Below are positions 14,819 to 57,213 of a DNA stretch of 64,000 nucleotides, in pieces. The notes under the pieces were generated by a model. That model was not told where the DNA came from. It saw only the letters and a program-made list of their open reading frames with translations, and did no database searches. Every line of letters begins with the position of its first letter. Position 1 is the stretch's first letter. A program made the position numbers and the translations under genes. The DNA is from an uncultured Nitrososphaerales archaeon (lineage in GTDB: Archaea > Thermoproteota > Nitrososphaeria > Nitrososphaerales > Nitrososphaeraceae). The stretch is from contig CAVOHZ010000010.1 in assembly GCA_963695855.1 (NCBI GenBank), positions 704,001 through 768,000 on the forward strand. Reading direction: 5' to 3'.

Positions 14819-15008
14819 ATCATAGCCCCTCTACAAAATTTGGTAAAATAGTCCAATTTTTGGATAAAATATCTTTTGCACAATATTAAATACACAAAGT
14901 TCTGGCAGAAGGAGATATATGTAGTTTCTTACAATATTTAAAATTTATTTTGATTATTAATAGTAAATAATACGTAGGTATATTTGATTGCAAATAGTGA
15001 AAGAAAAA

Positions 15009-15106
15009 GGCCTTCGGAGGGATTTGAACCCTCCTCAAGCGGTTTCTATCTTTTGTAGAAAAAAGACCACAGCCGCCTATACTAACCAGGCTATACTACG
15101 AAGGCC
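15009..15106 (-). tRNA. tRNA-His(GUG) with G-1 and a 23-nt intron at position 37/38 (15044-15066)
   Basis: Reverse complement folds to a cloverleaf: acceptor GCCTTCG/CGAAGGC, anticodon stem GGCGG/CCGCT with CT-GTG-G, T arm GAGGG-TTCAAAT-CCCTC. Confidence 0.93.
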
Positions 15107-41931: not shown

Positions 41932-42438
41932 ATGAATGTATTTGTTTTAATGTTGAAGCAAGACGATCCGACTAAATGTACTGCTGCTAAGTTAAAAAAG
42001 TTTCATCTAATTAATTCAACAACATTCATACCTAAAAACACAATTGTTTTAAATGCATTATCTAAAATTGTGCTGTCCAGAGACGATCTAAATAATGGAA
42101 AATCATTATGTGCTATCGATTGTTCGTGGAATTATATCCAAGAAACACTAAATAAATTTAAAATCATAAAAAAAAGAATCGACAGACGTCTTCCTCTCCT
42201 CCTTGCTGGGAATCCAGTAAATTATACTAAGCTGGGAAAATTAACAACAGCAGAGGCCTTGGCTGGGTCTCTTTATATTCTTGGATATCAATCCAGAGCA
42301 GAGAAATTATTGAATAAATTTAAATGGGGGCACACGTTTTTAGAACTGAATTTGGAAATCCTAAAATCATATAGTGAAACACACAGTCCTGAAGAAATTA
42401 AAAAGATTGAAAAGGAATATTTTCCAAATGTATATTAG
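41932..42438 (+). CDS. tsr3: rRNA aminocarboxypropyltransferase Tsr3
   Basis: DDPTKCT, DCSW, RRLPLLLAGNPVNY and FKWGHTFLELN motifs. Confidence 0.93.
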   Translation: MNVFVLMLKQDDPTKCTAAKLKKFHLINSTTFIPKNTIVLNALSKIVLSRDDLNNGKSLCAIDCSWNYIQETLNKFKIIKKRIDRRLPLLLAGNPVNYTKLGKLTTAEALAGSLYILGYQSRAEKLLNKFKWGHTFLELNLEILKSYSETHSPEEIKKIEKEYFPNVY

Positions 42439-42460: not shown

Positions 42461-42745
42461 GTGAGCTAGAGCGCGAGTTACTCATAACGAGAGGAAACTC
42501 CTCCCTCATAGCAGGCACCCAAATTAGCGATAATTAGCTGGAGACAGCTGGCAACGTAACAGAAAAGCTATCTAGAAGAGTCTATATATCTGTGATGGTT
42601 AATCGCCTGAGATCCCCTTACCTAGAATGAAACTGACGACCTGGGTGGAGCAAGGCCAAAACGAGTTATAAGGTTCCTGCACTTACTCAGGTTGGCCGCT
42701 TAGCGAAATCTCGCATAAACAGAAGGAGGGTTATTCCTAGCACAC
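42461..42745 (+). ncRNA. rnpB: RNase P RNA (archaeal)
   Basis: Conserved GAGGAAACTCC (CR-I), ACAGAAA, GAGCAAGGCCAAA and AACAGAAGGAGGGTTA (CR-V); P1 pairing GTGAGCTAG/CTAGCACAC; GC-enriched relative to flanks. Confidence 0.92.
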
Positions 42746-42803
42746 CATTGCTTCAAGTGAGTGTTCTAGCAGTAATTATTTATCTTACATTAATAAAATA
42801 AAA

Positions 42804-43145
42804 TTGTCTTTGGTAACAACGATAACAAAAACAACAACAACGCTAAAAGGAGAAGAAGAAAAGATAGATTCGGTCACTAAATCTTCTAAGCCTTTTATCA
42901 ATAAAATGTTAAAGGATTTGGCAAACAAAAACACAGAAAACGCCAATACTATCTGTAACTATATAATTGCTGAACAAACAGAATTCAATATCAAAGATTC
43001 TACCAAGCTTGGAAGGATAAAGGCACTTGTATATTTATCACGTATCTGCAATGATCAGAATTTTAAAGATATCACAAAACAGGATATTTTGGATCATGAG
43101 AGCGTATTATTTTCTATATTATATTATAAGCTCATATATAATTAA
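42804..43145 (+). pseudogene. N-terminal fragment of a tyrosine integrase (catalytic domain missing)
   Basis: ICNYIIAEQTEFNIKDSTKLGRIKALVYLS...FKDITKQDILD resembles, from memory, the N-terminal domain of Nitrososphaeraceae element integrases; lies immediately inside attL. Confidence 0.6.
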
Positions 43146-43203
43146 ATTACAAAACTTAATCCTATTTTCAAAAATGATATATTGAATAATTTTCTCTTAA
43201 ATA

Positions 43204-43836
43204 TCAAAATGGATTATTTGTATTTGTTCGAAATCTCCATGTGATGGGTGGTCCATATGGACAAGGACCAGGATTTGGTATTCTCTCAATTATACATCGA
43301 TCATTAATATTTTGAAAATTATTTTTAGTCTGCTGTGATTTTTCTACTATATCTTTAAGATTAGAGTAACTAGAACGCAAATTATTTATGGAATTGGCAG
43401 TCTCCAAGATTTCAGAAATATTTTTGTATGGGATATTGTTTTCTTTTAAGAATCGATTTATCTTCAGCAAATAGTTTAATCGAGGTTTATTGTCCTCATA
43501 AATATAGAAAAATTCTGCGTTACTTGATAAAAATAAATATTCTCTCCATAATCGGTCAATTTTAGGGAAATTTAAATCCAAAATAATGGCTACATCGAGA
43601 GCAGATTTGCCTTCTTTAAATAATTTAAAAGCCTGACTACCTTGTGATAACGTTCTTTTTTTATTCTTATCTTTACCTGATTTTAAGGTTGATTTTTCAT
43701 ATTTTTTTATTATAGGTTTTGTATCCCTTATCGATACGTGAGCGATATGGGCTATTTCACTATATGTCCTTCTTTCCTCATGTAACCTTATTACTAAATC
43801 ACGTTTTTCAAATTTATTTAATAATGAAACTTCCAT
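43204..43836 (-). CDS. Hypothetical HTH-containing protein
   Basis: RTYSEIAHIAHVS and AFKLFKEGKSALDVAI HTH-like segments; 210 aa. Confidence 0.65.
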   Translation of the reverse strand: MEVSLLNKFEKRDLVIRLHEERRTYSEIAHIAHVSIRDTKPIIKKYEKSTLKSGKDKNKKRTLSQGSQAFKLFKEGKSALDVAIILDLNFPKIDRLWREYLFLSSNAEFFYIYEDNKPRLNYLLKINRFLKENNIPYKNISEILETANSINNLRSSYSNLKDIVEKSQQTKNNFQNINDRCIIERIPNPGPCPYGPPITWRFRTNTNNPF

Positions 43837-44084
43837 TCTGGGATACTGTTAAAAAAGGGGTTAATAAACAGTTTGGTATTGTATTTTCATTTATTTATCT
43901 TTTATTACCAATTGATACCTACTGATATCATCTATTTTTTCTCATGCTCATTAAAATTTAGAAAAATCATCAACTACATTACTATTTTTTTTTTCCTTTT
44001 TTCTTATCGAAAAAGAATTAACTAATCTATTGCTATTCTAGCATGTTAATTATAAATTTAGGTGATCGATAATGAAATTTGGAA

Positions 44085-44126
44085 GGTTGGAACCACAATG
44101 CGATGCTCGAAGGTTCCCTTGACACC
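44085..44126 (+). repeat. Internal att-like junction, copy of 53176-53220
   Basis: TTGGAACCACAATGCGATGCTCGAAGGTT (44087) versus TTGGAACCCTAATGCGATGCTCTAAGGTT (53179): 26/29, followed by the degenerate core cccttgacacc. Confidence 0.8.
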
Positions 44127-44343
44127 CCTAAATATTATTTTTATATTTTTTTAAAACAATATCATTTTTTATATAATCTTTATAGAGGGTTGTCCACCCT
44201 GTCCACCCTGTCCATTTTTCTATTTTTTCCTGGTAAAATATGGTTGGAGCACCCATAACCGGACAAAAATGTTAAGTATTTTGGTTAGTTATGATATCAT
44301 TATAGCAGTAAATATGATTATTTATGAGGTGAATAGCAAGTAA

Positions 44344-44797
44344 ATGGGTAATTTAACAGATAAAGAGAACCAGATTTTAAAACCTTTAGTAGCCGATTGT
44401 GTTAACTACCGCTTCAATGAGAAGGAAGCATTAGCGTATATTAGAGCAACATTAGGCCGAGAAATATCATCAGATGTCTATTATAATCGAAAAAAGACAG
44501 TAGATAGTGGAGAATATGCAAAAGAATGGCTATCATATTATAGCCGTGTTGGCTTTCTGGTAAAACATAAATAGATTATCGAAGTCTGTGAGATGGTTCA
44601 GAAAGACATGATTAGGAGACTATTTAATAGAACAAAACAAACCCGCAGAAAGGAGGAATCCAGAATTAATAATGAAATTGAGATATGAGATTGGGGAGAA
44701 CGTCAAACTACTGCAAGAATTATCTTTAGGTACTCCAATAATCGCACAGATAAAAGCAAGGATAGATTATGCTGAAGTGCTTCAATCAGGCCAGTAA
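44344..44797 (+). pseudogene. Putative terminase small subunit-like gene (internal TAG and frameshift)
   Basis: Helical ~150-codon gene directly upstream of terL; identity inferred from position only. Confidence 0.4.
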
Positions 44798-46300
44798 CCT
44801 GCTATCTTTGGCTAGCAGGCTAGGCGGTAACGACGACGATAACTATTCAAATCTTTTACAGATATCCAAAGACAAACCATTCTATTTTGAACTCCAACAA
44901 CATAACCATAAAGACGACTGTTTCAACTGTCTAATTGGATGCCCACTAAAGAACAATAAGGAATATCCTCTTTTTGAGTATGAAAAAAATATTATTGATT
45001 CATAAGAGGGAAATCAACACGTATTCATTAAGAAGGCTAGGGGTATCGGAGTAACCGAGTTAATTTTACGTTATCTAGCGTGGTCCTGTTTATCATCTGA
45101 CAGGTTGGAAGGTAAGTCTATATTTCTTGTATCAGGTACTCTTGAAGACTTTTCAAATAATATTAAAATTAGATTAGAGACGTTGTCTGAACGCAATTTT
45201 CCTAATGTTAAGTTTGAATCAAAATATACTGAACTGACAATAGGCAAGACATGGATCAAGGTATTTCCTACAAAGAGGATACGGGATTTAAGAGGCTATA
45301 CTGACGTTTCCTATCTTTTCATAGACGATGCCGATTATTTTGATCCTGCAGAACAATTTGAACTAGAATATGTTATCAAGGCATACGAGAAAAAAATAAA
45401 TGTAAGATAATCCTGGCAAGTACACCTAACAAACCATTAGGATTATTTGATCGCATAGAGAGAAACGAAATATTCAAAGACTTCTTTCATAAAATATTCC
45501 TCCATTATACTGTAGGCCTTAACAAGATATACGATTCTGCTTTCATTGAACGAGAAAAGAATGAGGCATACTTTGAACGTGAATACTTTCTCAAATACCA
45601 GGGTCGCATTGGCAATATCTTCAGTCTGCAGGACATAGATACAGCGGTCCAGTTAGGTGTCCAATACAGCGAGTTGCCTATCAATCATGGGTGTCTGCAT
45701 CCTGCAGGTATTGATCCAGGCTTTAGTTCCTCGGTTACAGCAATAACAGTTTGTGAGATAGACGTAGAGAACCAGATCGTTAGAGTCATACTATCTGAAG
45801 AGCATGACAAGGCCAGACCTTCAGCAATAGCAGACAGGGTATTTCAAATACATACAGAAATACCGCATTGCCTGTTTTTCGTAAGTTCTGCCAACCGTGG
45901 TTTCACAAATGTACTAAAATCCAGGTTCGGAGAATCCTTAACATGGGAAAGATCGGAGGAGGTATCTATTGACGACAATTATGTTATACCGGTTCCATTT
46001 CAAAAAGATCACAAATCAATGTTAGAATGGACTTACAATCTTTTATCAAAAAAGAGGATAGCAATCGATCCCAAGTACCAGAAACTTATCCTATCCCTAA
46101 AATCTGCCTACGGTACAGAGTTCGATCTAGATAAGAATATTACAATATACTCAGATTACTTGGACTGGTTACGCTTAAGTCTAAGAGGCGTAAAACTAAA
46201 ACAGATAGATATGCCTGGAATCCATAAATGCCGAGACTATTTTGTATCTACTTCTGATAACAATTATTATTACTCAGATAGCGAAGACTTTCTCTCATAG
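44769..46300 (+). pseudogene. Terminase large subunit (ATPase + RNase H-like nuclease), disrupted
   Basis: Read through TAA 45003-45005 and an A-run frameshift near 45390: KKARGIGVTE (Walker A-like), LFIDDA (Walker B), IILASTP (motif C), FEREY, GIDPG (nuclease). Confidence 0.8.
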
Positions 46301-46541
46301 TTACTGCCCTAATTGTGAATCTTATGGACATTATAATCTACTAAAGGAACGTATCTATCAGGATTCAGAACTTATTAACGGTGATAAACCCCATGATTCT
46401 GAGAACCGGTTACAGTGCTATCGCTGTGGCCTAATAGTGGTAACGGTCCACGCTAAACAGGACTCAAAAATTACTAGAATAAAGGACGTACCAGAATCAA
46501 TCTATGATACTAAAAAGTTAACAATATTACCGTTTAACTAA
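46242..46541 (+). CDS. Zn-finger hypothetical protein (probably truncated)
   Basis: CPNC and CYRC motifs; start uncertain. Confidence 0.5.
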   Translation: MYLLLITIIITQIAKTFSHSYCPNCESYGHYNLLKERIYQDSELINGDKPHDSENRLQCYRCGLIVVTVHAKQDSKITRIKDVPESIYDTKKLTILPFN

Positions 46542-47034
46542 TGGAGTCAGAATCAAAGAAAGTATAGACAATTAATAAAATCCAGGACAATTAGGAAGAA
46601 TCCGGAAGAAGACGATCCAGATATACAGAGATCTAGAGAAAGGATCAAGATTGATAAGTTACGAATCAACAAACGAAGAAGGATAACCTACAACAAGAAA
46701 CATAACGATACCAATTTTTTGTATAATAATAACCGTTGGAGAGAGGGAAGGAAGGATTACAACAAAGACTACAAATATTCAGATATCTGTCAATCATTAT
46801 GGAGCGAATGACCAACCAGATATTCATTCATTATTTGTTTCTTTCTCTCTCCAACACCACTGTATGAGCCCACGCACTCTAGATAGTGGTAAAACATGTA
46901 CTACGATGATATTAGATTATCGGATGTAGGTCTGATATTCTTTTCATCAACCGAACTAGTTTTCTCACTACAGAGATTGCCAGTGGTATTAATAATATTA
47001 AGTTCTGACTACTTAAATTTTCAATAACAAGAAT

Positions 47035-47235
47035 TCATTTATTTTGTGCTAATTTTTTTCTCTTTTTCAGATAATCATCCAGCGCTTCAGTAACTAACTC
47101 TGTCAAGGTTTTCCTATCATCTATTGCTAAATGTTTCAATTCCCTTAACATCTCATCAGGTAATCTAATCGTGGTCTTACTGATCCCCTCCTCATCCTTT
47201 TCTTCCTTCATTATTAGTTGTTGACTTGTTGCCAT
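47035..47235 (-). CDS. Ribbon-helix-helix (CopG-like) DNA-binding protein
   Basis: KTTIRLPDEMLRELKHLAIDDRKTLTELVTEALDDYL. Confidence 0.85.
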   Translation of the reverse strand: MATSQQLIMKEEKDEEGISKTTIRLPDEMLRELKHLAIDDRKTLTELVTEALDDYLKKRKKLAQNK

Positions 47236-47344
47236 ATAATTTAATATTCATTTCCATGTTTATAATGATTGCCGTTTTGCTGTCAAAACAGATATACATA
47301 TATATTTAAATATTCTCAGGACTAAGAATTAGTAAGAAGTTATT

Positions 47345-48022
47345 ATGGCTAGAAGAGTAGCAGTACTGGTAGAACAGAAGAAGAAAAAAGTACCCGATAT
47401 TTTGAAGGGTTGGAATAACAGAACAGAAGAAAGTTATAGGAAGAATGGTCTTGACGTTCCAGAGCACCTAGATTATCAAAACAAGCATTTTTTGATGTTG
47501 GTTGATGCAGAAAAGTATCCAGTAGAGAAAGAAATAACGAAGATAGTACGGATTAGAGCAATTGACTATAATTCTAAGAGAAAGGAGATGAAAGAATTCC
47601 TTTACGGGTTCGAGAATTGGTATGGGAAGGACTGGCAAGGCCGTAAAGTAGCACCGGTGGCAGATCATGTAGAAGACAGGTACTGGGAGCAGGAGTTAGA
47701 GCCCGTAATAGAGAGAGACCAGATAATAGGATACGATAGAACAGGACAGCATGAAGTCTACTACGTACCATTCAGCAAGAAAGCGGTTGATGACATCATA
47801 GCAAAATCAACCTATGACAACAAGGAACAGATCAAATTACTGGTGAAAACACCTACAATAAAAAATGGTCAGTTCTCTTATGATCAGTTTGTTAACACAC
47901 CATGGGATGAATGTATTACCATGATAATGTATAATGGTGAGCCTTCAAGATATGAGTACCATAAGAAGCAACAGGAGAAGAAAGACGCTGAGCTCGAGAA
48001 ACAGAACAAACAGTACTCTTAA
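47345..48022 (+). CDS. Hypothetical protein (225 aa)
   Basis: Intact ORF divergent from the RHH gene; no motif recognised. Confidence 0.7.
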   Translation: MARRVAVLVEQKKKKVPDILKGWNNRTEESYRKNGLDVPEHLDYQNKHFLMLVDAEKYPVEKEITKIVRIRAIDYNSKRKEMKEFLYGFENWYGKDWQGRKVAPVADHVEDRYWEQELEPVIERDQIIGYDRTGQHEVYYVPFSKKAVDDIIAKSTYDNKEQIKLLVKTPTIKNGQFSYDQFVNTPWDECITMIMYNGEPSRYEYHKKQQEKKDAELEKQNKQYS

Positions 48023-48470
48023 TAATTCTTATTTTATGTTTTGCACGTTGTTATTTCAGTTTGTAACTAAATAAAAAAATGAAAGGATTAGTAATTAGTA
48101 ATTATTTTTACTATAGTTATGGCAACACTACTAATTTTGCGACACTGGTGAAAAATCGGGTAAAAACAGACTGCCTGCTGAATTCGGGTCATGGCGTGTT
48201 GAATTATGGTGATGCTACAATCTTGCGAGTAGATAAACCAAGAATGACAATTTCATCAAAGATTATAAGCAAACTTTTTCATATTATAAAATATAACCAT
48301 GATTGACGAAAGACGCTTGGCAATCAGAAAAAAATCGATATTTCAGCCACTCAGTCAGCGGGAGGCAGCCATTAACATCATCCGCGTTCCGCTTCTCGTC
48401 ATCCTCGTCGTCTTGGCGCAGCACGCGAGCATCATCATGTCATCGGGAAGTAGTTCTGACGGAGGGCAGC

Positions 48471-49115
48471 ATGGCACAATTTGACTGGTACATCGAAGGA
48501 GCCGAGTTCAGCAATTGCAACTGCGACTACGCCTGTCCTTGTCAGTTCGAGTCACCTCGCCCCACGCACGGACACTGTCGCGGCTTCGCGGCCATTCGCA
48601 TCGATAAGGGCCACTTTGGAGACGTGGCGCTCGATGGCCTCGGCGCAGCCCTCCTCTACGCCTGGCCGGGACCGATCTACGAGGGTAACGGTGAGTGTCA
48701 GGCCGTCATCGATGAGCGGGCGGACGGCAAGCAACGAGACGCTCTTACTACCGTGCTGTACGGTGGCGAGACCAAAGAGGGGGCGACCCATTGGTGGGTC
48801 TATCGGATGATGTCAAGCACCGTCCATCCCCCGCTTTTCAAACACATCGATTTTGACGTGAATATCGAGCGCCGAAAAGCACGCATCGTGATCCCCGACA
48901 TGCTCGAGTCCACCGCCCGTCCGATCCGAAGCCCTGCGACGGGCGCTGAACATCGCGTCCGCATAAACCTCCCGAATGGGATCGAGTTCGACCTCGCCGA
49001 GATAGGCAGTGGTACCACCAAGACGATGGCCTCAATCGCCCTCGACCTCAAGGACACCTACTGTCATTTTACTGTTCTGCGCCAGTCTGGCAAGGGGGTG
49101 GTCCGCTCACGATAG
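48471..49115 (+). CDS. DUF1326-family Cys-rich metal-binding protein of bacterial type, high GC
   Basis: MAQFDWYIEG..NCNCDYACPC...G.C; GGAGG Shine-Dalgarno upstream of ATG 48471; roughly 60% GC by eye (sampled 60-nt lines 50-67%). Confidence 0.85.
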   Translation: MAQFDWYIEGAEFSNCNCDYACPCQFESPRPTHGHCRGFAAIRIDKGHFGDVALDGLGAALLYAWPGPIYEGNGECQAVIDERADGKQRDALTTVLYGGETKEGATHWWVYRMMSSTVHPPLFKHIDFDVNIERRKARIVIPDMLESTARPIRSPATGAEHRVRINLPNGIEFDLAEIGSGTTKTMASIALDLKDTYCHFTVLRQSGKGVVRSR

Positions 49116-49618
49116 AATCCGACCGCTGAAGACCAGTGTGATCTTGAAGGGCAGTTAGATGATGGCGGAACTCTATTAAAGACGAATGTAAATCCTGACA
49201 TGGAATATCGTATATGTTTTGAATATGAAGATGGACATGGAAATGACTGTAGTAATCTAACATTAGCAGCAGGGGAAAATAAACTATGTACGGTTAAAAA
49301 CTATATTACCATTGGAACGGTGGTGGGCTAACTCTACATTTTTTTTATTTATTTTTTATTATTACTAAAACACTTGTAATTATTTATTCGTGAAAGTTAT
49401 CCATCAGATGGGCGTGAAGATTCTCCATAAGTTGTGTTACATACTTCTTTTTTTCTTTCTGCATTAAGTTTGGTGCCGCAAAAATACAGTATAGAGATTC
49501 TGGTGGTAACTGTAACGAAATTAATTCAAGTATTTAATAGTATGCAATACGTACGTAACAATGTTCCGTATTATACAACTTTAATAAAATGAAATTGGGA
49601 AGAGTGTTCCGAAACTTA

Positions 49619-50507
49619 GAGCCTATCCCAAAAATAGATAGGAATATAGCTCTTTAGTTTTATATCATACATGGTAATGTTGATTAAGAGTAAAAAGTCT
49701 GTTAGAACAATTACACGTATTCCTGACGATTTATGGAATGCGATTAAAAATATTTTACTAGAATAGAAACCAAGTAACACTATAGGAAGGCCAATTGTTC
49801 CATACAGAAAAGTCCTTGATGGAATAATGTTATCCTCAGAACTGGCTGTCAATGGAAAATGTTATCTAAAGAGTATGTTCTGGTTCAACATCTCATAGAA
49901 GATTTCAAGAATGGAGGCAATCAGGTATTTTTGATAGGGTCTGGACAAGATCGCTACAAAAATATGATACCAGGAAAGGAATCAGATGGAACTAGCAATC
50001 ACTTGATAGTATATCTGTAAAATCGCCTTTAGGGGAGTGATGACTGGACATAATCCAACTGATAGAGGCAAATTAGGAAGCAAAAGACATATTCTAACAG
50101 ATAATGATGGCATTCCTTTGTCTGCACTTATAATATCTGCAAATACTCATGATGCCACTGTTGCAACAAATACAATTGATAATATTGTAATCAGAAGACC
50201 ATCATACAAATCGGATGAGATAAAGAAACAGAATCTATGTCTTGATAAAGCATATCATTCCAAAGAAGTAGAGCAAGAAATTACCAAGAGAGGATACATT
50301 CCTCACATACGATTTAGAAGAGAAAAAAAGAAACACAACAATAAACAGCCAACAAGGAGATGGGTGGTAGAGAGAACAAATTCATGGCACAACAATAGAT
50401 TTAGGAAATTATTTACACGATATGAAAAGAAAGATGAGAACTATCTTGGTCTTGTACAACTAGCCAATAGCCTTATTGTATATAGAGGTTAATTTTGGGA
50501 TAGGCTC
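49619..50507 (+). mobile_element. IS5-family (IS1031-like) element with a disrupted transposase
   Basis: Perfect 15-bp TIRs GAGCCTATCCCAAAA/TTTTGGGATAGGCTC, TTA target duplication; C-terminal ORF 50037-50492 with DRGKLGSKRH, LDKAY and RWVVERTNSW; N-terminal part has stops. Confidence 0.92.
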
Positions 50508-50515
50508 TTAGTTAA

Positions 50516-50731
50516 TCACTCGTAATTATGAGTTGGGCCATCATTCTGTTCGTAGAACTTTACCAGATTAACTAACATTTCGTCATAGGTAGGATTGGAA
50601 TAATATTTAATTGCATGTTCCTTCAATACCCGAAAAGTCTGTTCTGTTATCTGCATGGTCCTGCAGTGCGAAGGAGGATTAACTTGATTCATTTTGGTAT
50701 ATCTACCAACAAGTCTATTATTCCTAGCCAT
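50516..50731 (-). CDS. Small putative DNA-binding protein
   Basis: RTMQITEQTFRVLK...TYDEMLVNLV pattern (RHH-like). Confidence 0.55.
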   Translation of the reverse strand: MARNNRLVGRYTKMNQVNPPSHCRTMQITEQTFRVLKEHAIKYYSNPTYDEMLVNLVKFYEQNDGPTHNYE

Positions 50732-50797
50732 AACGCGATAATAATTAGTTACACGATAGGATATTAAAAATATTTTTAGTTACTTTTTTTTCTAGTG

Positions 50798-50980
50798 TTA
50801 ACACCCTGGAGATACAAGGAAGCTATACCGTGTACATAGTTCACTAAGATTATTTGTAATATCATGAACTACATAATCATATACTGCTATTATTGCTAAT
50901 GCAGATACAAACAGTATAACCAATGCAATTATAATTGTTGTACCATAACTTTTGATTTTATTTTTTTGTTCCGAATACAT
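50798..50980 (-). CDS. Small single-pass membrane protein
   Basis: Hydrophobic stretch TIIIALVILFVSALAIIAVY. Confidence 0.5.
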   Translation of the reverse strand: MYSEQKNKIKSYGTTIIIALVILFVSALAIIAVYDYVVHDITNNLSELCTRYSFLVSPGC

Positions 50981-51063
50981 TTATAGAATATTTACCATAT
51001 AATTCTTCTATTTAAGAATTATAGTACATTCTACAAAACGGTAAAGTTAAAAATTACATACAA

Positions 51064-51506
51064 TTATGCTGTGAAAGTAGAAGGTGTTTTTTTGACAAAC
51101 TCAAATCTTCTTTTTACTTCCACCCTACTGTCTTGAGGTACTTCGTAGTAAACCAACAAATCAAGTAATCCGGTTGTCGAATCTCTATCCCTCTGAGAAC
51201 CGTGTACCTTTCCATTAAGTTCTATTACAATGTCAGATAGAACTTCATATTGTTTCTGCACTTATGTTATTGAACCAGAAAGCAACTCTAAGGAATTAGA
51301 CATTTTCTTCTTTGGATTCCGGGTTTTTTACTACAATAAGTTGAATTAGTGCTATTACTAGTTAGTTTATTTGCGACTCTGTTCGGACAAACATGCTTCT
51401 TTTGTGAAAGAACTTCTCAGTATTCATTAACTGCAGTATTCCAATAGATACGGGTATTGCAACCATATTCACAGGTTTTAGGATAAATATTGCTTTGAGA
51501 ACTCAT
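51064..51506 (-). pseudogene. Hypothetical protein pseudogene
   Basis: MSSQSNIYPKTCEYGCNTRIYWN... continues through stops/frameshift into ORF 51064-51261. Confidence 0.55.
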
Positions 51507-51512
51507 TTCTGC

Positions 51513-51818
51513 TTAGTGTCTTTCATAAGAATCCAGGAGTCTGCTTATCTCTTCGTCATACGATTCACCATGTTGGCGATTCTTTTTTAATCTGCTATCT
51601 GTTTTTCTGGTTATATACATAGTAACCTTCTCGTCTTTTTCGTCTTTTTCAACATAAAACTCACCACCATGTACGTCTAGATGATGATCGTAACAAAGTG
51701 GAATCCTTATCCACTGTATTCCAAGGGGTCCCATATCTACAACGTCGCCCAGGAGCATATAACCGGCTACAGGATTTTCACATTGAAGAATAGAACATAA
51801 TATTGTTGGTGGATTCAT
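51513..51818 (-). CDS. Hypothetical Cys/His protein with RHH-like C terminus
   Basis: CSILQC and LCYDHH motifs; GESYDEEISRLLD. Confidence 0.55.
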   Translation of the reverse strand: MNPPTILCSILQCENPVAGYMLLGDVVDMGPLGIQWIRIPLCYDHHLDVHGGEFYVEKDEKDEKVTMYITRKTDSRLKKNRQHGESYDEEISRLLDSYERH

Positions 51819-51997
51819 TTCTTATGTTTCCCTTCATACTTCTGCAGAATATACTGCATACCTTCCAGAAGCAAAGCATTCAAAGTGATATCATTATCAA
51901 GTGCAATCTGCTTCAGGCGTTTTATATCAGGTGCATCACATCGAAATACCAATTTCTTTGAGTTTGCATCTATCAATAATTCAAGATTCTGTTTCAT
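51815..51997 (-). CDS. Ribbon-helix-helix DNA-binding protein
   Basis: KLVFRCDAPDIKRLKQIALDNDITLNALLLEGMQYIL. Confidence 0.75.
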   Translation of the reverse strand: MKQNLELLIDANSKKLVFRCDAPDIKRLKQIALDNDITLNALLLEGMQYILQKYEGKHKK

Positions 51998-52062
51998 GTA
52001 TTTATATTTCTTGCATGTTGTATTTATAACTTGTTATAATGCTATACTGCTACACTATACCA

Positions 52063-52533
52063 ATGAAACAAACAATTTCTAAACAATTAGCGAAGGAAGA
52101 AAAGAACAACAAGAAGGATAGAAGGGAGGGCAATGGTCGTGTCCTGGCCCTCTCTAGATATGTCTACCGCCTCCAAGCAAAAGACACGTATTATGTCGAA
52201 TCTGAGACGGCGGATAGTAGATATTATTTCGTACGCTTCAACTATTCCTTTACCGGATGATTCTGCAGTTGCAAAGATTACGAATCGAATCGTTCAGAAA
52301 AGTGTAAACACCAATACGCTGTGGAATATGAGATAAGATTCAATACCATTAAGGAAGTTGAACATTTACCGGAAGAAGTAAGCAACGCTAAGAAGACTGC
52401 AGAAAGAAATTACGAAAAGGAATCTATTAGAACATGGAACGAATTAGAGAAAGCAGAAGCAGAAGATACGACAGAGGCCATAGACTACAGGGGCCAGTGC
52501 CTAACCCACCAAGACGACGACTATTCATTCTAA
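52063..52533 (+). pseudogene. SWIM zinc-finger protein with an in-frame TGA (52258-52260)
   Basis: Read-through gives YYVESE...YFV...G*FCSCKDYESNRSEKCKHQYAV (CxC...CxH SWIM motif); both ORF pieces are in the same frame. Confidence 0.75.
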
Positions 52534-52563
52534 CCAACCTTTTATTTATTTGTAAAATCGGAA

Positions 52564-52809
52564 ATGGGCCGGAGACGTAAATTCCGTTGGGTTCCGTTGA
52601 CGTCTATATCCGTCTCAGTGGAAATCCTTGATTTAATACAGATACTTAAAGTCAGAAATGAGACATACGATCACCTTCTACGCGTAACGCTGGCAGAATG
52701 GCAGGACCTGCAGGAGTACCGTCTAGACATGGACCAGGTGATAAGATTGAAAGATACTCAGATCGCAACGCTGGAAAATGAATTGAAGGAAAAAATACCT
52801 AACTTTTAA
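52564..52809 (+). CDS. Small putative DNA-binding/coiled-coil protein
   Basis: TSISVSVEILDLI...NETYDHLLR pattern plus a coiled-coil tail. Confidence 0.55.
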   Translation: MGRRRKFRWVPLTSISVSVEILDLIQILKVRNETYDHLLRVTLAEWQDLQEYRLDMDQVIRLKDTQIATLENELKEKIPNF

Positions 52810-52888
52810 TGCAATTTCTTCATTTATTTATTTATAAATTTATAAATTTATTACTCTAGCGATATCTAGAAGTCATCTGGCTATCTTC

Positions 52889-52913
52889 TCGGGTTCAAAT
52901 CCCGACGGCCCCG
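52889..52913 (+). other. tRNA 3'-half fragment (T arm + 3' acceptor strand), att-like relic
   Basis: TCGGG-TTCAAAT-CCCGA-CGGCCCC-G; no 5' half, D arm or anticodon arm upstream. Confidence 0.8.
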
Positions 52914-53607
52914 TTTCAAATATGGTTCTATTTAATTCCGGAGTAGAAAGCGGTTGTCCGACACACTTTCTTCATTCCGAAAGCGCAAGTTGCCAATACG
53001 AAGTAGGTAAGTGTAATTATGATAAGTGCTTTATCTTTATTTACAATAGAAAATATTTAGAGGTATATTGAACTAATACACGATCGGAAAAATAATTAGA
53101 TTAACTATCCTCTTCTTTCTAGGAATAAATATATCATCTATTTATTTCATTTAGTATGTTGGTATGGCATGGCTTGGTTTGGAACCCTAATGCGATGCTC
53201 TAAGGTTATTCCTTGCACACTATCAATCCAAATGAACGTTCTCAGATCTATTTTTGATGATTAATTTCATGATGCTAAAATCTTATCAAATCATAAAGAT
53301 GTTTAGACCTGATGATATGATATTTAAGTTTGAACCATCAATCTTTTGATAAATACTTATTGCCAGCACACTATTGATAACCAGCAAGTTCAATGTAGTT
53401 TGAGTAACCGTAGAAATCAAGGCTAAATATACTTGATTTGTAATTTCCATTTTTTAACTTGTTTTGTTATTTTATAATATTTTTATAACTAAAATTATAA
53501 ACAAGTTATGTTTAGATTTATAGAAAACAATTTCAATCTTTATAAAAAACCAGATATAAAATAAATATAGTCATGGATTAATATTTTCATGTTATTTCAA
53601 TATGGAA

Positions 53608-55377
53608 TTACTTTGTAACTATTAACATCAATACTATTATTCCAAATGTAACAGATAAGAATATCTTAGTCAAATCCATAGACTTATCCAAGGCTCTCGA
53701 ATAATCTTCAAATTGACCATTGCCCATAACTTTAATTGATGTTTTGCTGTCTAATATTTCGTATTTTGCATTTTTGATTTTTTCTTGTGCTTCAGATAAG
53801 ATTTCAATGAAATATTTTGTTGCGTCATCAAAACTTGTAATTTCTCCAAATGGAAAATATCCCTCGGAAGTCCTAAATCCTGAATTTTCATGCGTATCAG
53901 AGGTACAAATATCTAACAATGTAATGCCCTTTTGTTCAAGATCCTCAATAATATGTTCTCGCAATCCATTTTTCATATTATTTGAATCTATCCAACCAAT
54001 AAAATATTGTTTATCATGAATTTGAATCATAAATATCGATATTCCTGCTTTTCCTAAATCTTTATTATTTATGTCACTTTGGATTCCTCTTGTACTGGAA
54101 TAACTTATTTTAAACTCCGACTGAGGGGAATTTCTTAGATTTCTTAAGCAACTTTTTGCAGCATTTACCATATCATTTCTGCTTGTTTCCTCTAGTTTTT
54201 TCCCCATAGCATTATGGCTATCTACTATTAAAATCTTGTCAAAACCAATTTCTTTTGAATATTTCTCTAATTCAGCTAATATACTTTCTGGAACATCATC
54301 CATACCAACGGGTGAATTGGATAAAATTATAAGAGGTATATTTCCGAATGCAATTCCAGTACAAGTGGAACTTCCATTTGTTATCCTTATAGGAATGGAA
54401 CAAGTAGTTCCATTTTGGATTATATTATATGTTGATAAAGATTCTAAATATTTTACAACCTCTTCACTCGATGGAATATTTAACGAATGATCCGAAACAC
54501 TATGAAATACGATTGATTTATAATCATAGTATTCCCAAATTCTAAATGATAAATTACTTCCTCCTATTGTCTTGAACGGTCCAGGATGTATATCTGGTAA
54601 TACTAAATTTATATTTTCGAAATCATTCCCAAACCTAACAATTCTAGTAAATACCGATGCTTCTCTGGATTTAGAGATCAGAATCCTTTCAATATCTTCA
54701 ACTTTATTTTCTGTCCAGGCAGACATAAAAGCTTGTAAGAGAGAAAAAGTACTTTGAATATATGGACGACCTGATCTATCTACTAATATAGCCCACGCTA
54801 TCCCTAAACCTAATATAATGAAGCCAAAACAGATGGGAAGGGGGTCTGTCAGCCCCTTAAATGAATTTAACGGAGTTATGACAAATAATAAGAGGAATGG
54901 TTGATAGATTGCTGTTTTTATTGCTTTTTTTAGGCCTGCTCCAAAAACTGATGTAAATATACCTATTCTTAACCCAATTGCTACCATCATCCCTTCTATT
55001 ATATGTCCAATAGGAATATTGTCTTTGTTGAATATCATATAGGAAACTATACCCAGAACTAAAATTGCCATCCAAAGAAGATTTGAAAATGCTGAAACAT
55101 GGAGTATCTTGGAAAACTTGTTGACAGGCGTATCACGCAACAAATAAAAATCTAAAAAATAACTACAAATTAAAAAACTTAAACCCAATATAGAATAAAT
55201 GATAATATGAGCTGAATCCTGTAGGAAATAAATTTCTGTTAGTATAATAATTAACAGTGAGCTAATTATAGATATTATTAATGAAACCTTATAAGATGAA
55301 AAGTTTATTCTTGTGAAAGACCATCTTCTGTGGATATTAGAAACACTATCATGGTCCTCTCCCATTACTTGAGCCAC
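53608..55377 (-). CDS. DUF2070-family membrane protein
   Basis: N-terminal TM bundle; HPGPF, DSHNA, DSNN and TSDTH motifs. Confidence 0.85.
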   Translation of the reverse strand: MAQVMGEDHDSVSNIHRRWSFTRINFSSYKVSLIISIISSLLIIILTEIYFLQDSAHIIIYSILGLSFLICSYFLDFYLLRDTPVNKFSKILHVSAFSNLLWMAILVLGIVSYMIFNKDNIPIGHIIEGMMVAIGLRIGIFTSVFGAGLKKAIKTAIYQPFLLLFVITPLNSFKGLTDPLPICFGFIILGLGIAWAILVDRSGRPYIQSTFSLLQAFMSAWTENKVEDIERILISKSREASVFTRIVRFGNDFENINLVLPDIHPGPFKTIGGSNLSFRIWEYYDYKSIVFHSVSDHSLNIPSSEEVVKYLESLSTYNIIQNGTTCSIPIRITNGSSTCTGIAFGNIPLIILSNSPVGMDDVPESILAELEKYSKEIGFDKILIVDSHNAMGKKLEETSRNDMVNAAKSCLRNLRNSPQSEFKISYSSTRGIQSDINNKDLGKAGISIFMIQIHDKQYFIGWIDSNNMKNGLREHIIEDLEQKGITLLDICTSDTHENSGFRTSEGYFPFGEITSFDDATKYFIEILSEAQEKIKNAKYEILDSKTSIKVMGNGQFEDYSRALDKSMDLTKIFLSVTFGIIVLMLIVTK

Positions 55378-55379
55378 TA

Positions 55380-55583
55380 TTATACTGGAAATATGACTCT
55401 GATCAATATAGAAATTGCTATTAACCCTCCAGTAACCCCGAGAACTATTTCTGGTTTTACCTTGACTCCTTTAGTCTCATCCTCAAAAAATCTTAACAAT
55501 CCTGCGCTAGAAGCGGGTAATGGTGCATTCTTCTTTTTACTACTCAATTCGATAAACTTCAGCACAGTATTACTTAAATACAT
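55380..55583 (-). CDS. secG: Preprotein translocase subunit Sec61beta/SecG
   Basis: SSAGLLRFFEDE...P followed by a single C-terminal TM segment; true start probably later than the ORF start. Confidence 0.88.
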   Translation of the reverse strand: MYLSNTVLKFIELSSKKKNAPLPASSAGLLRFFEDETKGVKVKPEIVLGVTGGLIAISILIRVIFPV

Positions 55584-56298: not shown

Positions 56299-57213
56299 AT
56301 GGTTAAAGATATTTCGTTATTTGGTGATCGTTGTCCTAGATGTGGTAAAGGTCCGATGGTAACCGATAATTCCACAGGTGAAATGTTTTGCGGCAATTGT
56401 GGTTTTGTAATCAATGAAAGAATTGAGGAAACCGGACCTGAGTGGAGAGCTTTTTCTAAAGAAGAACATGAAGATAGAAGTAGGGCAGGAATTCCTACTT
56501 CCTTGGCGATGCATGATATGGGACTAGCCACAATAATAGGTCCTATAGACAAGGATGCATCTGGAAAACCATTATCTTCTTCTATGAAAAGCACCATTGA
56601 AAGGTTAAGAACTTGGGATAGTCGAAGTCAGGTACATGAACCGGTTGATCGTAACTTTAGACAGGCGTTCAGTGAGTTAGATCGATTGAAAGATAAATTA
56701 GCTGTTGGCGATGCTGTTATAGAAAAAGCAGCGTATGTGTATAGAAAAGCACTCGAAAAAGGGCTTGTTAGAGGAAGGTCGATTTCAGCATTAGTCGCAG
56801 CTGCATTATATGCTGCTTGTCGTGATACAGAAACGCCCAGGACTCTAAAAGATATAGCAAACGCTAGCAATATTAAGAAAAAAGATGTCGCTAGGTGTTA
56901 TAGATTATTAATCAGAGAGTTGGATTTACGCATGCCTGTTGTCGATCCGGTTAAATGTGTTGCCAGAATAGCAAGTAAGGCTGGATTATCAGAAAAAACA
57001 AAACGTAAGGCGTTAGAGATACTAAAGAAAGCAGAAGAAGGTAAGATATCAGCCGGTAAAGATCCTATGGGGCTAGCAGCTGCGGCTCTTTATGTAGCTT
57101 GTGTAATGAATGGTGAAAATAAGACCCAAAAAGATGTAGCAGAAGCAGCGGGTGTTACAGAAGTGACAATCAGAAATAGATACAAGGGATTAAAAACACA
57201 CTTAAAACTATAA
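56299..57213 (+). CDS. tfb: Transcription initiation factor IIB
   Basis: Zn ribbon, GPEWRAF, two cyclin repeats, GVTEVTIRNRYK. Confidence 0.97.
   Translation: MVKDISLFGDRCPRCGKGPMVTDNSTGEMFCGNCGFVINERIEETGPEWRAFSKEEHEDRSRAGIPTSLAMHDMGLATIIGPIDKDASGKPLSSSMKSTIERLRTWDSRSQVHEPVDRNFRQAFSELDRLKDKLAVGDAVIEKAAYVYRKALEKGLVRGRSISALVAAALYAACRDTETPRTLKDIANASNIKKKDVARCYRLLIRELDLRMPVVDPVKCVARIASKAGLSEKTKRKALEILKKAEEGKISAGKDPMGLAAAALYVACVMNGENKTQKDVAEAAGVTEVTIRNRYKGLKTHLKL

Follow-up and report, generated by a model that had tools for sequence, protein, structure and literature searches.

Integration of mobile elements into tRNA and tmRNA genes is textbook knowledge, and bacterial islands and prophages were reportedly described in tmRNA (ssrA) and tRNA genes by Williams in 2002. 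For archaea, to our knowledge, reviews list no targets besides tRNA genes, intergenic sites and protein genes. The thaumarchaeal elements of Krupovic et al. 2019 (PMC6563490), whose targets are given in the main text as tRNA genes (39), intergenic regions (15) and protein genes (14), resemble the locus reported here in that a tyrosine integrase adjoins a structural RNA gene at its 3´ end, in the length of att identity (median 17 bp there, 17 bp here), in the host family, in their provirus-like or cryptic cargo and in the occurrence of tandem integrations; they differ in that the RNA genes targeted are tRNA genes, whereas here it is rnpB, the gene of the archaeal RNase P RNA. Neither 'RNase P' nor 'rnpB' occurs in that main text, to which the comparison refers, and an unrecognised rnpB case among the 'intergenic' sites is possible. 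The bacterial islands and prophages in ssrA and tRNA genes (Islander, PMC4383910) likewise integrate into the 3´ portion of genes for small stable RNAs, whereby the target gene is rebuilt and the far island end is recognisable by a displaced fragment, a layout which is alike here; the rnpB element differs from them in the domain of life, in having a ribozyme as target and in an identity block that stops exactly at the gene end. Phage phiEf11 (PMC12540744, 2025) shares with it the use of a housekeeping RNA gene other than tRNA or tmRNA as attB (ffs, 4.5S RNA), which is presented there as a novel target, and the list of RNA-gene targets given there comprises tRNA/tmRNA and csRNA but lacks rnpB; phiEf11 belongs, however, to the bacterial phages, and its core, located in the SRP RNA gene, is 27 nt long, whereas the rnpB element is archaeal and has a 17-bp core. 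The 'suicidal' integrases of the SSV type (PMC7253208; PMC8371274) are also archaeal tyrosine recombinases with RNA-gene targets, yet their attP is located within the integrase gene, and integration splits this gene into Int(N) and Int(C) at the two ends, while whole integrase genes are found beside rnpB. An SSV-type integrase was ruled out here by uninterrupted frames of 477-501 aa next to rnpB; as to in-frame stops, a TAG is located in the frame of the attL core and a TAA just upstream of the attR core. In the openly accessible texts searched, no report of rnpB as attachment site was found, and the caution about novelty voiced in a preliminary description of this DNA was right. The locus would add the catalytic RNA of RNase P to the list of RNA-gene targets, and this in archaea. 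If the switch of target suggested below is true, the archaea would have their first att site in an RNA gene other than tRNA, and rnpB might be used here for the first time in any domain. As rnpB is often left unannotated, 'intergenic' islands beside it may be misclassified.

All positions given here refer to a 64,000-nt stretch of contig CAVOHZ010000010.1, hereafter the window (Table 1). The 10,458 bp between the two repeat cores, 42746 to 53203, are with high confidence a decayed remnant of an integrative element targeting the 3´ end of rnpB; the same interpretation had been put forward in the preliminary description and is supported by an empty site, by a unique repeat and by rnpB-linked integrases elsewhere. 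The rnpB gene matches RF00373 over the full model (1-288; 162.6 bits, E 2.3e-46), whereby the RF00373 structure line flags zero non-canonical pairs in the 3´ strand of P1. The flanking genes, claimed earlier to be housekeeping genes outside the repeats, were identified by family matches as tsr3, DUF2070 and Sec61beta, and tsr3-rnpB synteny is kept in all loci of the genus, just as DUF2070 and Sec61beta are syntenic in relatives.

Table 1. Features of the rnpB locus in the window, with att and trailer assignments according to the reading preferred here.
Feature	Position	Strand	Basis or remark
tsr3 (ribosome biogenesis), left chromosomal flank	41932..42438	+	PF04034, E 1.5e-40
rnpB, archaeal RNase P RNA gene, intact	42461..42745	+	RF00373 (Rfam)
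attL core, 17-bp identity block, final 17 nt of rnpB	42729..42745	+	identical to attB core of G014
Element-borne replacement of rnpB trailer	42746..42767	+	14/22 match to native trailer
Left-arm motif GAGTGTTCT	42759-42767	+	ends element-borne trailer; conserved in left ends of other rnpB elements
Integrase N-terminal fragment	42804..43145	+	homology 42855-43091; catalytic domain lost
Multi-copy 210-aa gene at break point of integrase gene	43204..43836	-	paralogues
Two small conserved element genes	44344-44574, 44769-45005	+	paralogues
Large-terminase-like pseudogene, two frames	45006..46297 (45006-45407, 45362-46297)	+	homologues
Ribbon-helix-helix (CopG-type) gene	47038..47247	-	PF01402, E 1.1e-6
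Conserved element gene, 225 aa	47345..48022	+	paralogues
GC-rich (55-67% GC) bacterial-like insert	48330..49200	+	composition; DUF1326 gene, ORF 48303-49115
Broken IS, DDE transposase in two frames	49820..50492	+	PF01609, E 5e-15; weak DUF4096 match
Right-end module, small genes	50516..52809		50516-50731(-), 51513-51818(-), RHH-like 51818-52033(-), 52039-52260, 52321-52533, 52564-52809
Right-arm motif GGAACCCTAATG, inverted copy of left-arm motif	53181..53192	+	conserved upstream of attR core
attR core, 16/17, A to T at 53214	53204..53220	+	sequence comparison
Displaced native rnpB trailer	53221..53260	+	match to G014 empty site
DUF2070, right chromosomal flank	53608-55377	-	PF09843, E 1.5e-113
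Sec61beta, right chromosomal flank	55380-55583	-	PF03911
TFB	56299-57213		right of DUF2070/Sec61beta

The direct repeat was re-found as first described, with the 39-mers at 42729-42767 and 53204-53242 lying on the same strand 10,475 bp apart and agreeing without gaps at 30 of 39 positions and at 16 of 17 in the core. Its onset is sharp at GGTTATT, no similarity being present upstream of the repeat, and the left core takes in the 3´ strand of helix P1 according to the RF00373 structure line, so that the A to T exchange in the right core would break the P1 pair U42467-A42739. In the genus-mate G014, rnpB and DUF2070 are separated by 622 bp with no integrase, which constitutes an empty site, and the rnpB end and trailer of this genome match the right core and flank of the window with 2 mismatches in 57 nt counted from the core start, whereas the trailer at the left junction agrees with the native one at 14 of 22 positions only. 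As a consequence, the right repeat is identified as attR, the original rnpB end in displaced position, and the left junction as attL, which carries element DNA: attL consists of rnpB, an element-borne look-alike trailer and an integrase gene reading away from rnpB, and attR of a free core copy, the original trailer and the DUF2070 flank. With target direct repeats at both ends, a displaced fragment continuous with the native flank and an empty site in a close relative (one genome), the locus has the make-up of an att-flanked island. G014 is the only genome with a clean empty site, which could either never have been occupied or have been precisely excised. Of three findings that would have refuted the preliminary description according to its own list, none was made: as to the first, the 10 kb are not shared as core, G014 being empty and other genus members having ~2.9-8.9 kb of different gene content between rnpB and DUF2070. 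On insertion, which would have been catalysed by the integrase with a crossover presumably falling within the 17 bp, the trailer of the element would replace the native rnpB trailer and the latter would be displaced to the far end. Since the last base of the 17-bp identity block is also the last base of rnpB, the gene stays intact; of the earlier proposal that the element targets the 3´ end and restores the gene, the first part stands, while rebuilding is not needed and only the trailer is replaced. In the window itself the repeat is not perfect, and the similarity between the trailers is weak.

The integrases found at rnpB have borderline PF00589 scores (27.9 bits for the G018 copy, 29.9 for L087 and 26.5 for L085, at a cut-off of 27.1 bits); their family profile matches P. 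abyssi XerA (4a8e, E 5e-5), and a PDB search with a single integrase sequence returned nothing. An alignment of 10 integrases shows no variation at R215, K247, Y338-x-x-R341-H342, W363 and Y373 (L087 numbering), and going by established motifs we take these columns to be the catalytic R, K, HxxR, H/W and the nucleophilic Y. In the HxxR motif the first H is replaced by Y. Both the family model and the catalytic residues place the family in the tyrosine recombinase superfamily, the window fragment being without catalytic domain. In the full-length tree, nine rnpB-linked integrases and two near-identical ones, for which no upstream sequence is on record, form one clade (SH-aLRT 94) that is sister to a tRNA-Ser integrase, and in the N-terminal tree a branch (84/90) sets the eight rnpB-linked rows, that of the window included, apart from the others. 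Within the Nitrososphaeraceae, the integrase family shows the same arrangement behind tRNA-Ser(GCT) and tRNA-Val(TAC): a tRNA gene is directly upstream at 12 of 19 non-rnpB homologue loci, tRNA-Ser(GCT) in ten cases and tRNA-Val(TAC) in two. The rnpB-linked clade is nested among these relatives and was seen in this genus only. It is suggested, with moderate confidence, that a living archaeal tyrosine-integrase clade has switched from tRNA-Ser to rnpB, where cargo of several unrelated kinds would then regularly be inserted within a single genus of ammonia-oxidising soil archaea. As the clade is nested in tRNA-Ser-targeting integrases and both kinds of site are sequenced, the acquisition of new integrase targets becomes testable. 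We know of no genetic system for ammonia-oxidising archaea, and, if the reading is true, the integrase together with attP could serve these organisms as a site-specific integration tool, the 17-bp site being single-copy, essential and conserved.

Integrase homologues were identified directly 3´ of rnpB in 11 of those 18 genomes of the genus in which the sequence downstream of the gene extends over 1 kb or more, as well as on 13 of 80 metagenome contigs, where rnpB lies 116-205 nt upstream of the integrase; four of these contigs (L085, L086, L087 and L089) carry the uninterrupted frames of 477-501 aa. Among 25 species-representative genomes of the genus no uninterrupted integrase was found at rnpB, the best copies having one (G018) or two frameshifts (G012), and no integrase at all at rnpB in 40 loci of other genera and 13 of other families; scans of viral contigs with the core pattern and with the rnpB-type integrase N-terminus yielded neither a relative nor a free form. 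One may ask whether a single ancient integration in the ancestor of the genus, followed by vertical inheritance of its remains and by unrelated indels, would suffice, so that rnpB is not recurrently used. The prevalence of fragments among rnpB-linked integrases of species genomes, the colinear attL junction common to the window and G019 and the confinement of the clade to one genus would agree with such a scenario, which is nevertheless considered improbable, given the uninterrupted metagenomic integrases, the empty site inside the closest species trio and the split of the integrases into two well-separated subclades with different cargo. Cargo varies among the elements, with a terminase-like module in the window and in G012 and a PriX-like primase gene in L085. 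Of 18 sequences searched, four have an insert (~3.1 to 10.5 kb) that ends at a second copy of the core; this copy is exact at 17/17 in G019 and G017, with one mismatch in the window and two in G012, and the exact repeats likewise speak against one ancient event, as does a tandem second att copy in G012 that is followed by a second integrase remnant. Moreover, the identity between the window and G019 is 82.4% in the integrase fragments, as against 90.7-93.2% in the flanking intergenic DNA; as judged from this divergence of the element beyond its neutral flanks, the insertions in the two genomes are likely independent.

Still less credible is the idea that rnpB-DUF2070 is a general variable region, filled by other means such as IS activity or homologous recombination, whose repeat is a partial gene duplication and not an att site. 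The broken IS, the multi-copy gene and the foreign, GC-rich gene of this interval would fit such a region, and four MAG contigs end right after rnpB; the idea would, however, account neither for sharp 17-bp repeat boundaries in four genomes, nor for an integrase that is always alike in distance and orientation and belongs to a target-specific clade, nor for a right-repeat flank that equals the empty site. The inverted arm motifs around the core are a further point against it: the right-arm motif is conserved upstream of the attR core in the window, G019, G012 and G017, with inverted matches of 10/10 in G019 and 12/14 in G017, and the inverted GRGKGTTCY motifs, ~12 bp either side of the core, are putative protein-binding sites. 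A left-arm-like motif is also found 3´ of rnpB in another genus without integrase and without a second core copy, and as a consequence the left-arm motif may be no binding site but a native feature of the rnpB trailer which the element has copied. In the window, the 17-mer has only two matches at up to 2 mismatches (chance expectation 0.01), and two or more matches occurred in 0 of 100 shuffles; the genome-wide uniqueness check that had been proposed gave the same two places only in the whole 3,548,682-bp assembly, for the 17-mer at up to 2 mismatches on both strands and for the 39-mer at up to 10 mismatches, the 17-mer at 3 mismatches having 7 places. That the repeat is a chance match in AT-rich DNA, as an overall agreement of 30/39 only and a genome of 31% GC might suggest, is refuted by this expectation, by the uniqueness in 3.55 Mb and by the recurrence of the pattern in relatives, and its probability is negligible.

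Taken as the remnant of an rnpB-targeting element, the window copy is dead and no longer mobile on its own, its integrase being cut, its terminase-like gene frameshifted, insertions added and attR mutated. The cargo listed in the preliminary description (integrase fragment, terminase pseudogene, RHH genes and IS) was confirmed or supported by family or homologue matches. The integrase fragment begins 59 nt past the attL core and corresponds to the first ~95 residues of a tyrosine integrase of ~480 aa. It is 56% identical to an intact paralogue over residues 27-107 of the latter and 81% identical to the rnpB-linked copy of G019; with only about residues 27-107 of ~480 left, the window copy has no functional integrase. 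The 210-aa gene at its break point, probably a secondary insertion, has at least nine other copies on six contigs (32-88% identity) and matched no Pfam or PHROG family above threshold. The order of the two small conserved genes is kept by their paralogues in further element copies of this genome, one such pair adjoining a tRNA-Val-linked integrase near C10:1.70 Mb. For the terminase-like pseudogene 129 homologues were found, full-length at ~470-500 aa and some with PF03237 or PF17289, and two intact paralogues exist in the same genome; Pfam and PDB searches with the fragments themselves gave no match, and the capsid or portal families that a tailed-virus-like provirus would have beside a large terminase were absent from the subset of ORFs scanned (10 in Pfam, 10 in PHROGs). 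The 225-aa gene has paralogues of 89% and 76% identity in the same genome and a 41% homologue in the rnpB element of G012. Right-end module paralogues are present in other element copies of the genome as well, and its last three genes have homologues at the right ends of the rnpB elements of G019 and G017, the RHH-like match within the module being weak. The broken IS has many copies in the genome (best 98%), and in the GC-rich insert, whose nearest plasmid DNA match is to Microvirga (66.6%), the DUF1326 gene matches PF07040 (E 9e-54).

The preliminary description had noted that the 3' end of rnpB, the RNase P RNA gene, is repeated in the window and had proposed this gene as the attachment site of an integrated element. 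The repeat proved to be real and far beyond chance, and the proposal of an element integrated at rnpB was both supported and extended. The second copy reproduces the last 17 nt of rnpB except for one base, and an ungapped comparison of the two 39-nt repeats shows identity at 30 of 39 positions. With up to two mismatches allowed, the 17-mer is present in two copies only in the window, where 0.01 were expected, and the same two copies were the only ones identified when both strands of the whole 3.55-Mb assembly were searched. The left boundary of the repeat similarity (GGTTATT) is sharp, the upstream DNA being devoid of any match. DNA located 3' of rnpB was then collected from the genomes of the genus wherever contigs were long enough, rnpB being matched in 22 of its 25 species genomes. 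In G014, a genome that with one other is the most closely related (rnpB identity 98.6%), 622 bp without mobile genes separate rnpB from DUF2070. Over 57 nt, the G014 rnpB end and trailer differ from the right repeat and flank of the window by two mismatches, while the left trailer of the window agrees with the G014 trailer at only 14 of 22 positions; as a consequence, the right repeat was identified as the displaced native end (attR), and the left junction (attL) as rnpB joined to element DNA. The final base of the 17-bp identity block is the last base of rnpB, hence the RNA is left unchanged by integration. In the Rfam alignment, no non-canonical pair was flagged for the 3' P1 strand of the window rnpB. 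The single change in attR is A to T at 53214, which according to our own reading of the Rfam structure would break the U42467-A42739 pair and would fit a fragment freed from selection. At the G014 empty site (locus L032, ~1326-1557), ~229 bp lie between the native trailer and the resumed homology, and this stretch is absent from the window and from G019, a genus-mate.

Recurrence was counted over the 18 genus genomes possessing at least 1 kb 3' of rnpB, and an integrase homologue was found there in the same place and orientation in 11 of them (G000, which is the genome of the window, G019, G012, G017, G001, G004, G009, G018, G023, G020 and G024). A second core was present in 4 of the 18 sequences searched, its distance from the attL core being ~10.5 kb in G000 (16/17 matching), ~7.0 kb in G019 (exact, 17/17), ~7.3 kb in G012 (15/17) and ~3.1 kb in G017 (exact, 17/17). 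In G012 a further left end of the element type and a second integrase remnant come after the second core, an arrangement which suggests tandem accretion; a third att copy was looked for in this genome and not found. One insertion inherited by the relatives would be the alternative to repeated integration, and here the window and G019 were compared: their element junction DNA is 82.4% identical as against 90.7-93.2% for the flanking intergenic DNA, a divergence which favours separate insertions of related elements. A single-protein scan of genome contigs returned six loci, two of which were the already known rnpB cases. In four draft genomes of the genus (G008, G015, G016 and G021) the contigs stop within 130 nt 3' of rnpB, and contig ends at this position would be the expected outcome of a repeated or strain-variable element residing there.

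The window integrase is a stub, which corresponds to residues 27-107 of the intact paralogues (~480 aa) in the same genome, with 56% identity, and is 81% identical to the rnpB-adjoining copy in G019, the rest of the gene being missing. Exactly where the gene is cut stands a 210-aa gene on the opposite strand, of which G000 holds at least nine other copies on six contigs (32-88% identity); it possesses an HTH-like N-terminus and could be a small mobile gene not yet described. G000 also encodes four intact integrase paralogues, one of them beside tRNA-Val. The integrase family is one of tyrosine recombinases: PF00589 scores range from 26.5 to 29.9 bits (cut-off 27.1), and a profile of 10 sequences matches XerA from Pyrococcus abyssi (4a8e, E 5e-5), while a PDB search with a single integrase sequence gave no match. 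Within the alignment of these 10 sequences no variation occurs in the R, K, YxxR-H, W and Y columns, each of which presumably has the catalytic role of the corresponding motif residue. Past the catalytic tyrosine, a C-terminal Cys4 zinc-ribbon (CxxC...CxxC; residues 407-424 of L087:93-1523, a metagenome copy) is conserved in 10/10 and gives a weak Pfam DZR match; such a ribbon is unusual among known tyrosine recombinases. A split ('suicidal') integrase of the SSV type was ruled out, as whole integrase genes adjoin rnpB.

Within a tree of full-length integrases (43 rows, 421 columns, three short rows dropped) the nine rnpB-linked integrases group in a single clade (SH-aLRT 94), which also includes two near-identical contigs lacking upstream sequence. 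Its sister is an integrase linked to tRNA-Ser, and the clade as a whole lies within a set of integrases linked to tRNA-Ser(GCT) and tRNA-Val(TAC). In a tree of the N-terminal part (83 columns), which includes the window fragment, 8/8 rnpB-linked rows fall together on the same side of one branch, the support for which is 84/90 (80% of the bootstrap trees). Of 19 fetched non-rnpB genome loci with homologues, 12 carry a tRNA directly upstream, i.e., tRNA-Ser(GCT) in 10 and tRNA-Val(TAC) in 2. In 40 rnpB loci representing 11 further genera of the family no integrase was found within 2.2 kb, nor was one found at rnpB in 13 loci from other families. Among the 150 strong integrase matches listed from 151 family genomes (140 more exist), two adjoin rnpB, both of them in this genus; the unpublished genomes G073, G111 and G130 count only in these 151-genome tallies. 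The switch in specificity is traceable.

A metagenome scan with the N-terminus of an rnpB-type integrase as query yielded 80 loci that were kept. Upstream of the integrase, rnpB was found at a distance of 116-205 nt in 13 of these and tRNA-Ser or tRNA-Val in 17 (15 Ser, 2 Val); 13 loci offered too little sequence, and nothing was recognised in 37, whereby an Rfam search of 20 'no target' loci added one intron-bearing tRNA (one of the 37). Uninterrupted integrase frames of 477-501 aa are present on four rnpB-linked contigs (L085, L086, L087 and L089), none of which reaches attR, and these intact genes would argue for activity of the rnpB-clade integrases. L085 shows the order tsr3, rnpB, integrase and cargo including a PriX-like primase gene; no homologue of the window's cargo was found among it. 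Within IMG/VR no relative of the rnpB-type integrase N-terminus was detected, and four matches to the core pattern were taken as chance because neither rnpB nor an integrase lies nearby. The best-scoring metagenome integrase relative (L082:1-1200) carries a homologue of the window's right-end gene directly upstream of its integrase with no rnpB core in between. This order would fit a free or tandem form that is circularly permuted, or else an element directed at a different target; as the rnpB core is lacking, L082 was not counted as a free form of the rnpB type but assigned to another target type.

The mechanism is ordinary, namely a tyrosine integrase inserting its element at the 3' end of a gene for a stable RNA. 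In the openly accessible full text that was searched, rnpB was not found described as an attachment site and was mentioned for unrelated uses only, e.g., as phylogenetic marker or gene-list entry. A survey of thaumarchaeal integrated elements gives 39 tRNA, 15 intergenic and 14 protein-gene sites, its main text containing neither 'RNase P' nor 'rnpB' (PMC6563490), and neither term occurs in a review on archaeal tyrosine recombinases (PMC8371274). In a 2025 report, ffs is presented as a novel RNA-gene site, tRNA/tmRNA and csRNA being given as the known ones (PMC12540744). Within the literature searched, rnpB is hence apparently an undescribed target.

The anatomy of the putative attP was derived from the junction sequences. 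The left ends of the elements contain GAGTGTTCT, GAGGGTTCC or ATGGGTTCT at ~12 bp 3' of the core, and at the right ends the inverse motif (GGAACCCT...) precedes the attR core by ~12 bp, the inverted arms matching at 10/10 positions in G019 and 12/14 in G017. In sister elements, a similar TGGGGATTY follows tRNA-Ser. The idea of a purely element-borne GRGKGTTCY arm was weakened by another genus, g18 (loci L166-L173), where a TGGGGATTC-like motif, resembling both the element arm and the sequence after tRNA-Ser in sister elements, lies within the first 30 nt after rnpB, few bases past its end. No integrase was found within 2.2 kb of these rnpB loci, and a single core copy was present in four of five g18 genomes examined, all four being complete or near-complete; therefore, the left arm may be a copy of a native rnpB trailer feature. 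Many elements carry an A/T-rich AATAATTATTTAT-like box between arm and integrase start, which could serve as integrase promoter.

The window copy is a fossil. Its terminase-like frames gave no match in Pfam and PDB sequence searches, and Pfam and PHROGs gave none for the integrase fragment and most cargo ORFs. The designation terminase-like follows precomputed domains of the homologues, which measure 470-500 aa and in some cases possess a Terminase_6N or 6C domain; G000 itself encodes two paralogues that are intact. The GC-rich block has bacterial-like DNA relatives, the nearest plasmid DNA match being Microvirga (66.6%), and looks like a recent bacterial-to-archaeal transfer into the element. 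The G019 and G017 elements share the right-end module with the window copy. On contig C10 of G000, paralogues of the core module, which consists of the small genes, the terminase-like gene, the 225-aa gene and the right-end genes, occur in many copies, one of them at 60-89% protein identity; these cluster at ~1.29-1.30, 1.475-1.497, 1.525-1.530, 1.67-1.70 and 1.76-1.795 Mb, within the final third of C10 and outside the window.

Features of the window, with the cargo of the element in its order after the integrase stub
Feature	Coordinates	Strand	Remark
tRNA-His(GTG)	15008-15106	-	99 nt (ARAGORN); length suggests intron
tsr3	41932-42438		housekeeping flank
rnpB	42461-42745	+	complete archaeal RNase P RNA gene (Rfam, 162.6 bits, model 1-288)
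attL core	42729-42745		last 17 nt of rnpB
Integrase stub	42804-43145
Multi-copy gene	43204-43836	-	210 aa
Two small conserved genes	44344-45005
Large-terminase-like gene	45006-46297		split over two frames
RHH gene	47038-47247	-
Conserved 225-aa gene	47345-48022
GC-rich block with DUF1326 gene	48330-49200		~870 bp; 55-67% GC vs 31% GC genome
Broken IS	49820-50492
Right-end gene	52564-52809
attR core	53204-53220		second copy
DUF2070	53608-55377	-	housekeeping flank
Sec61beta	55380-55583	-	housekeeping flank
TFB	56299-57213		housekeeping flank
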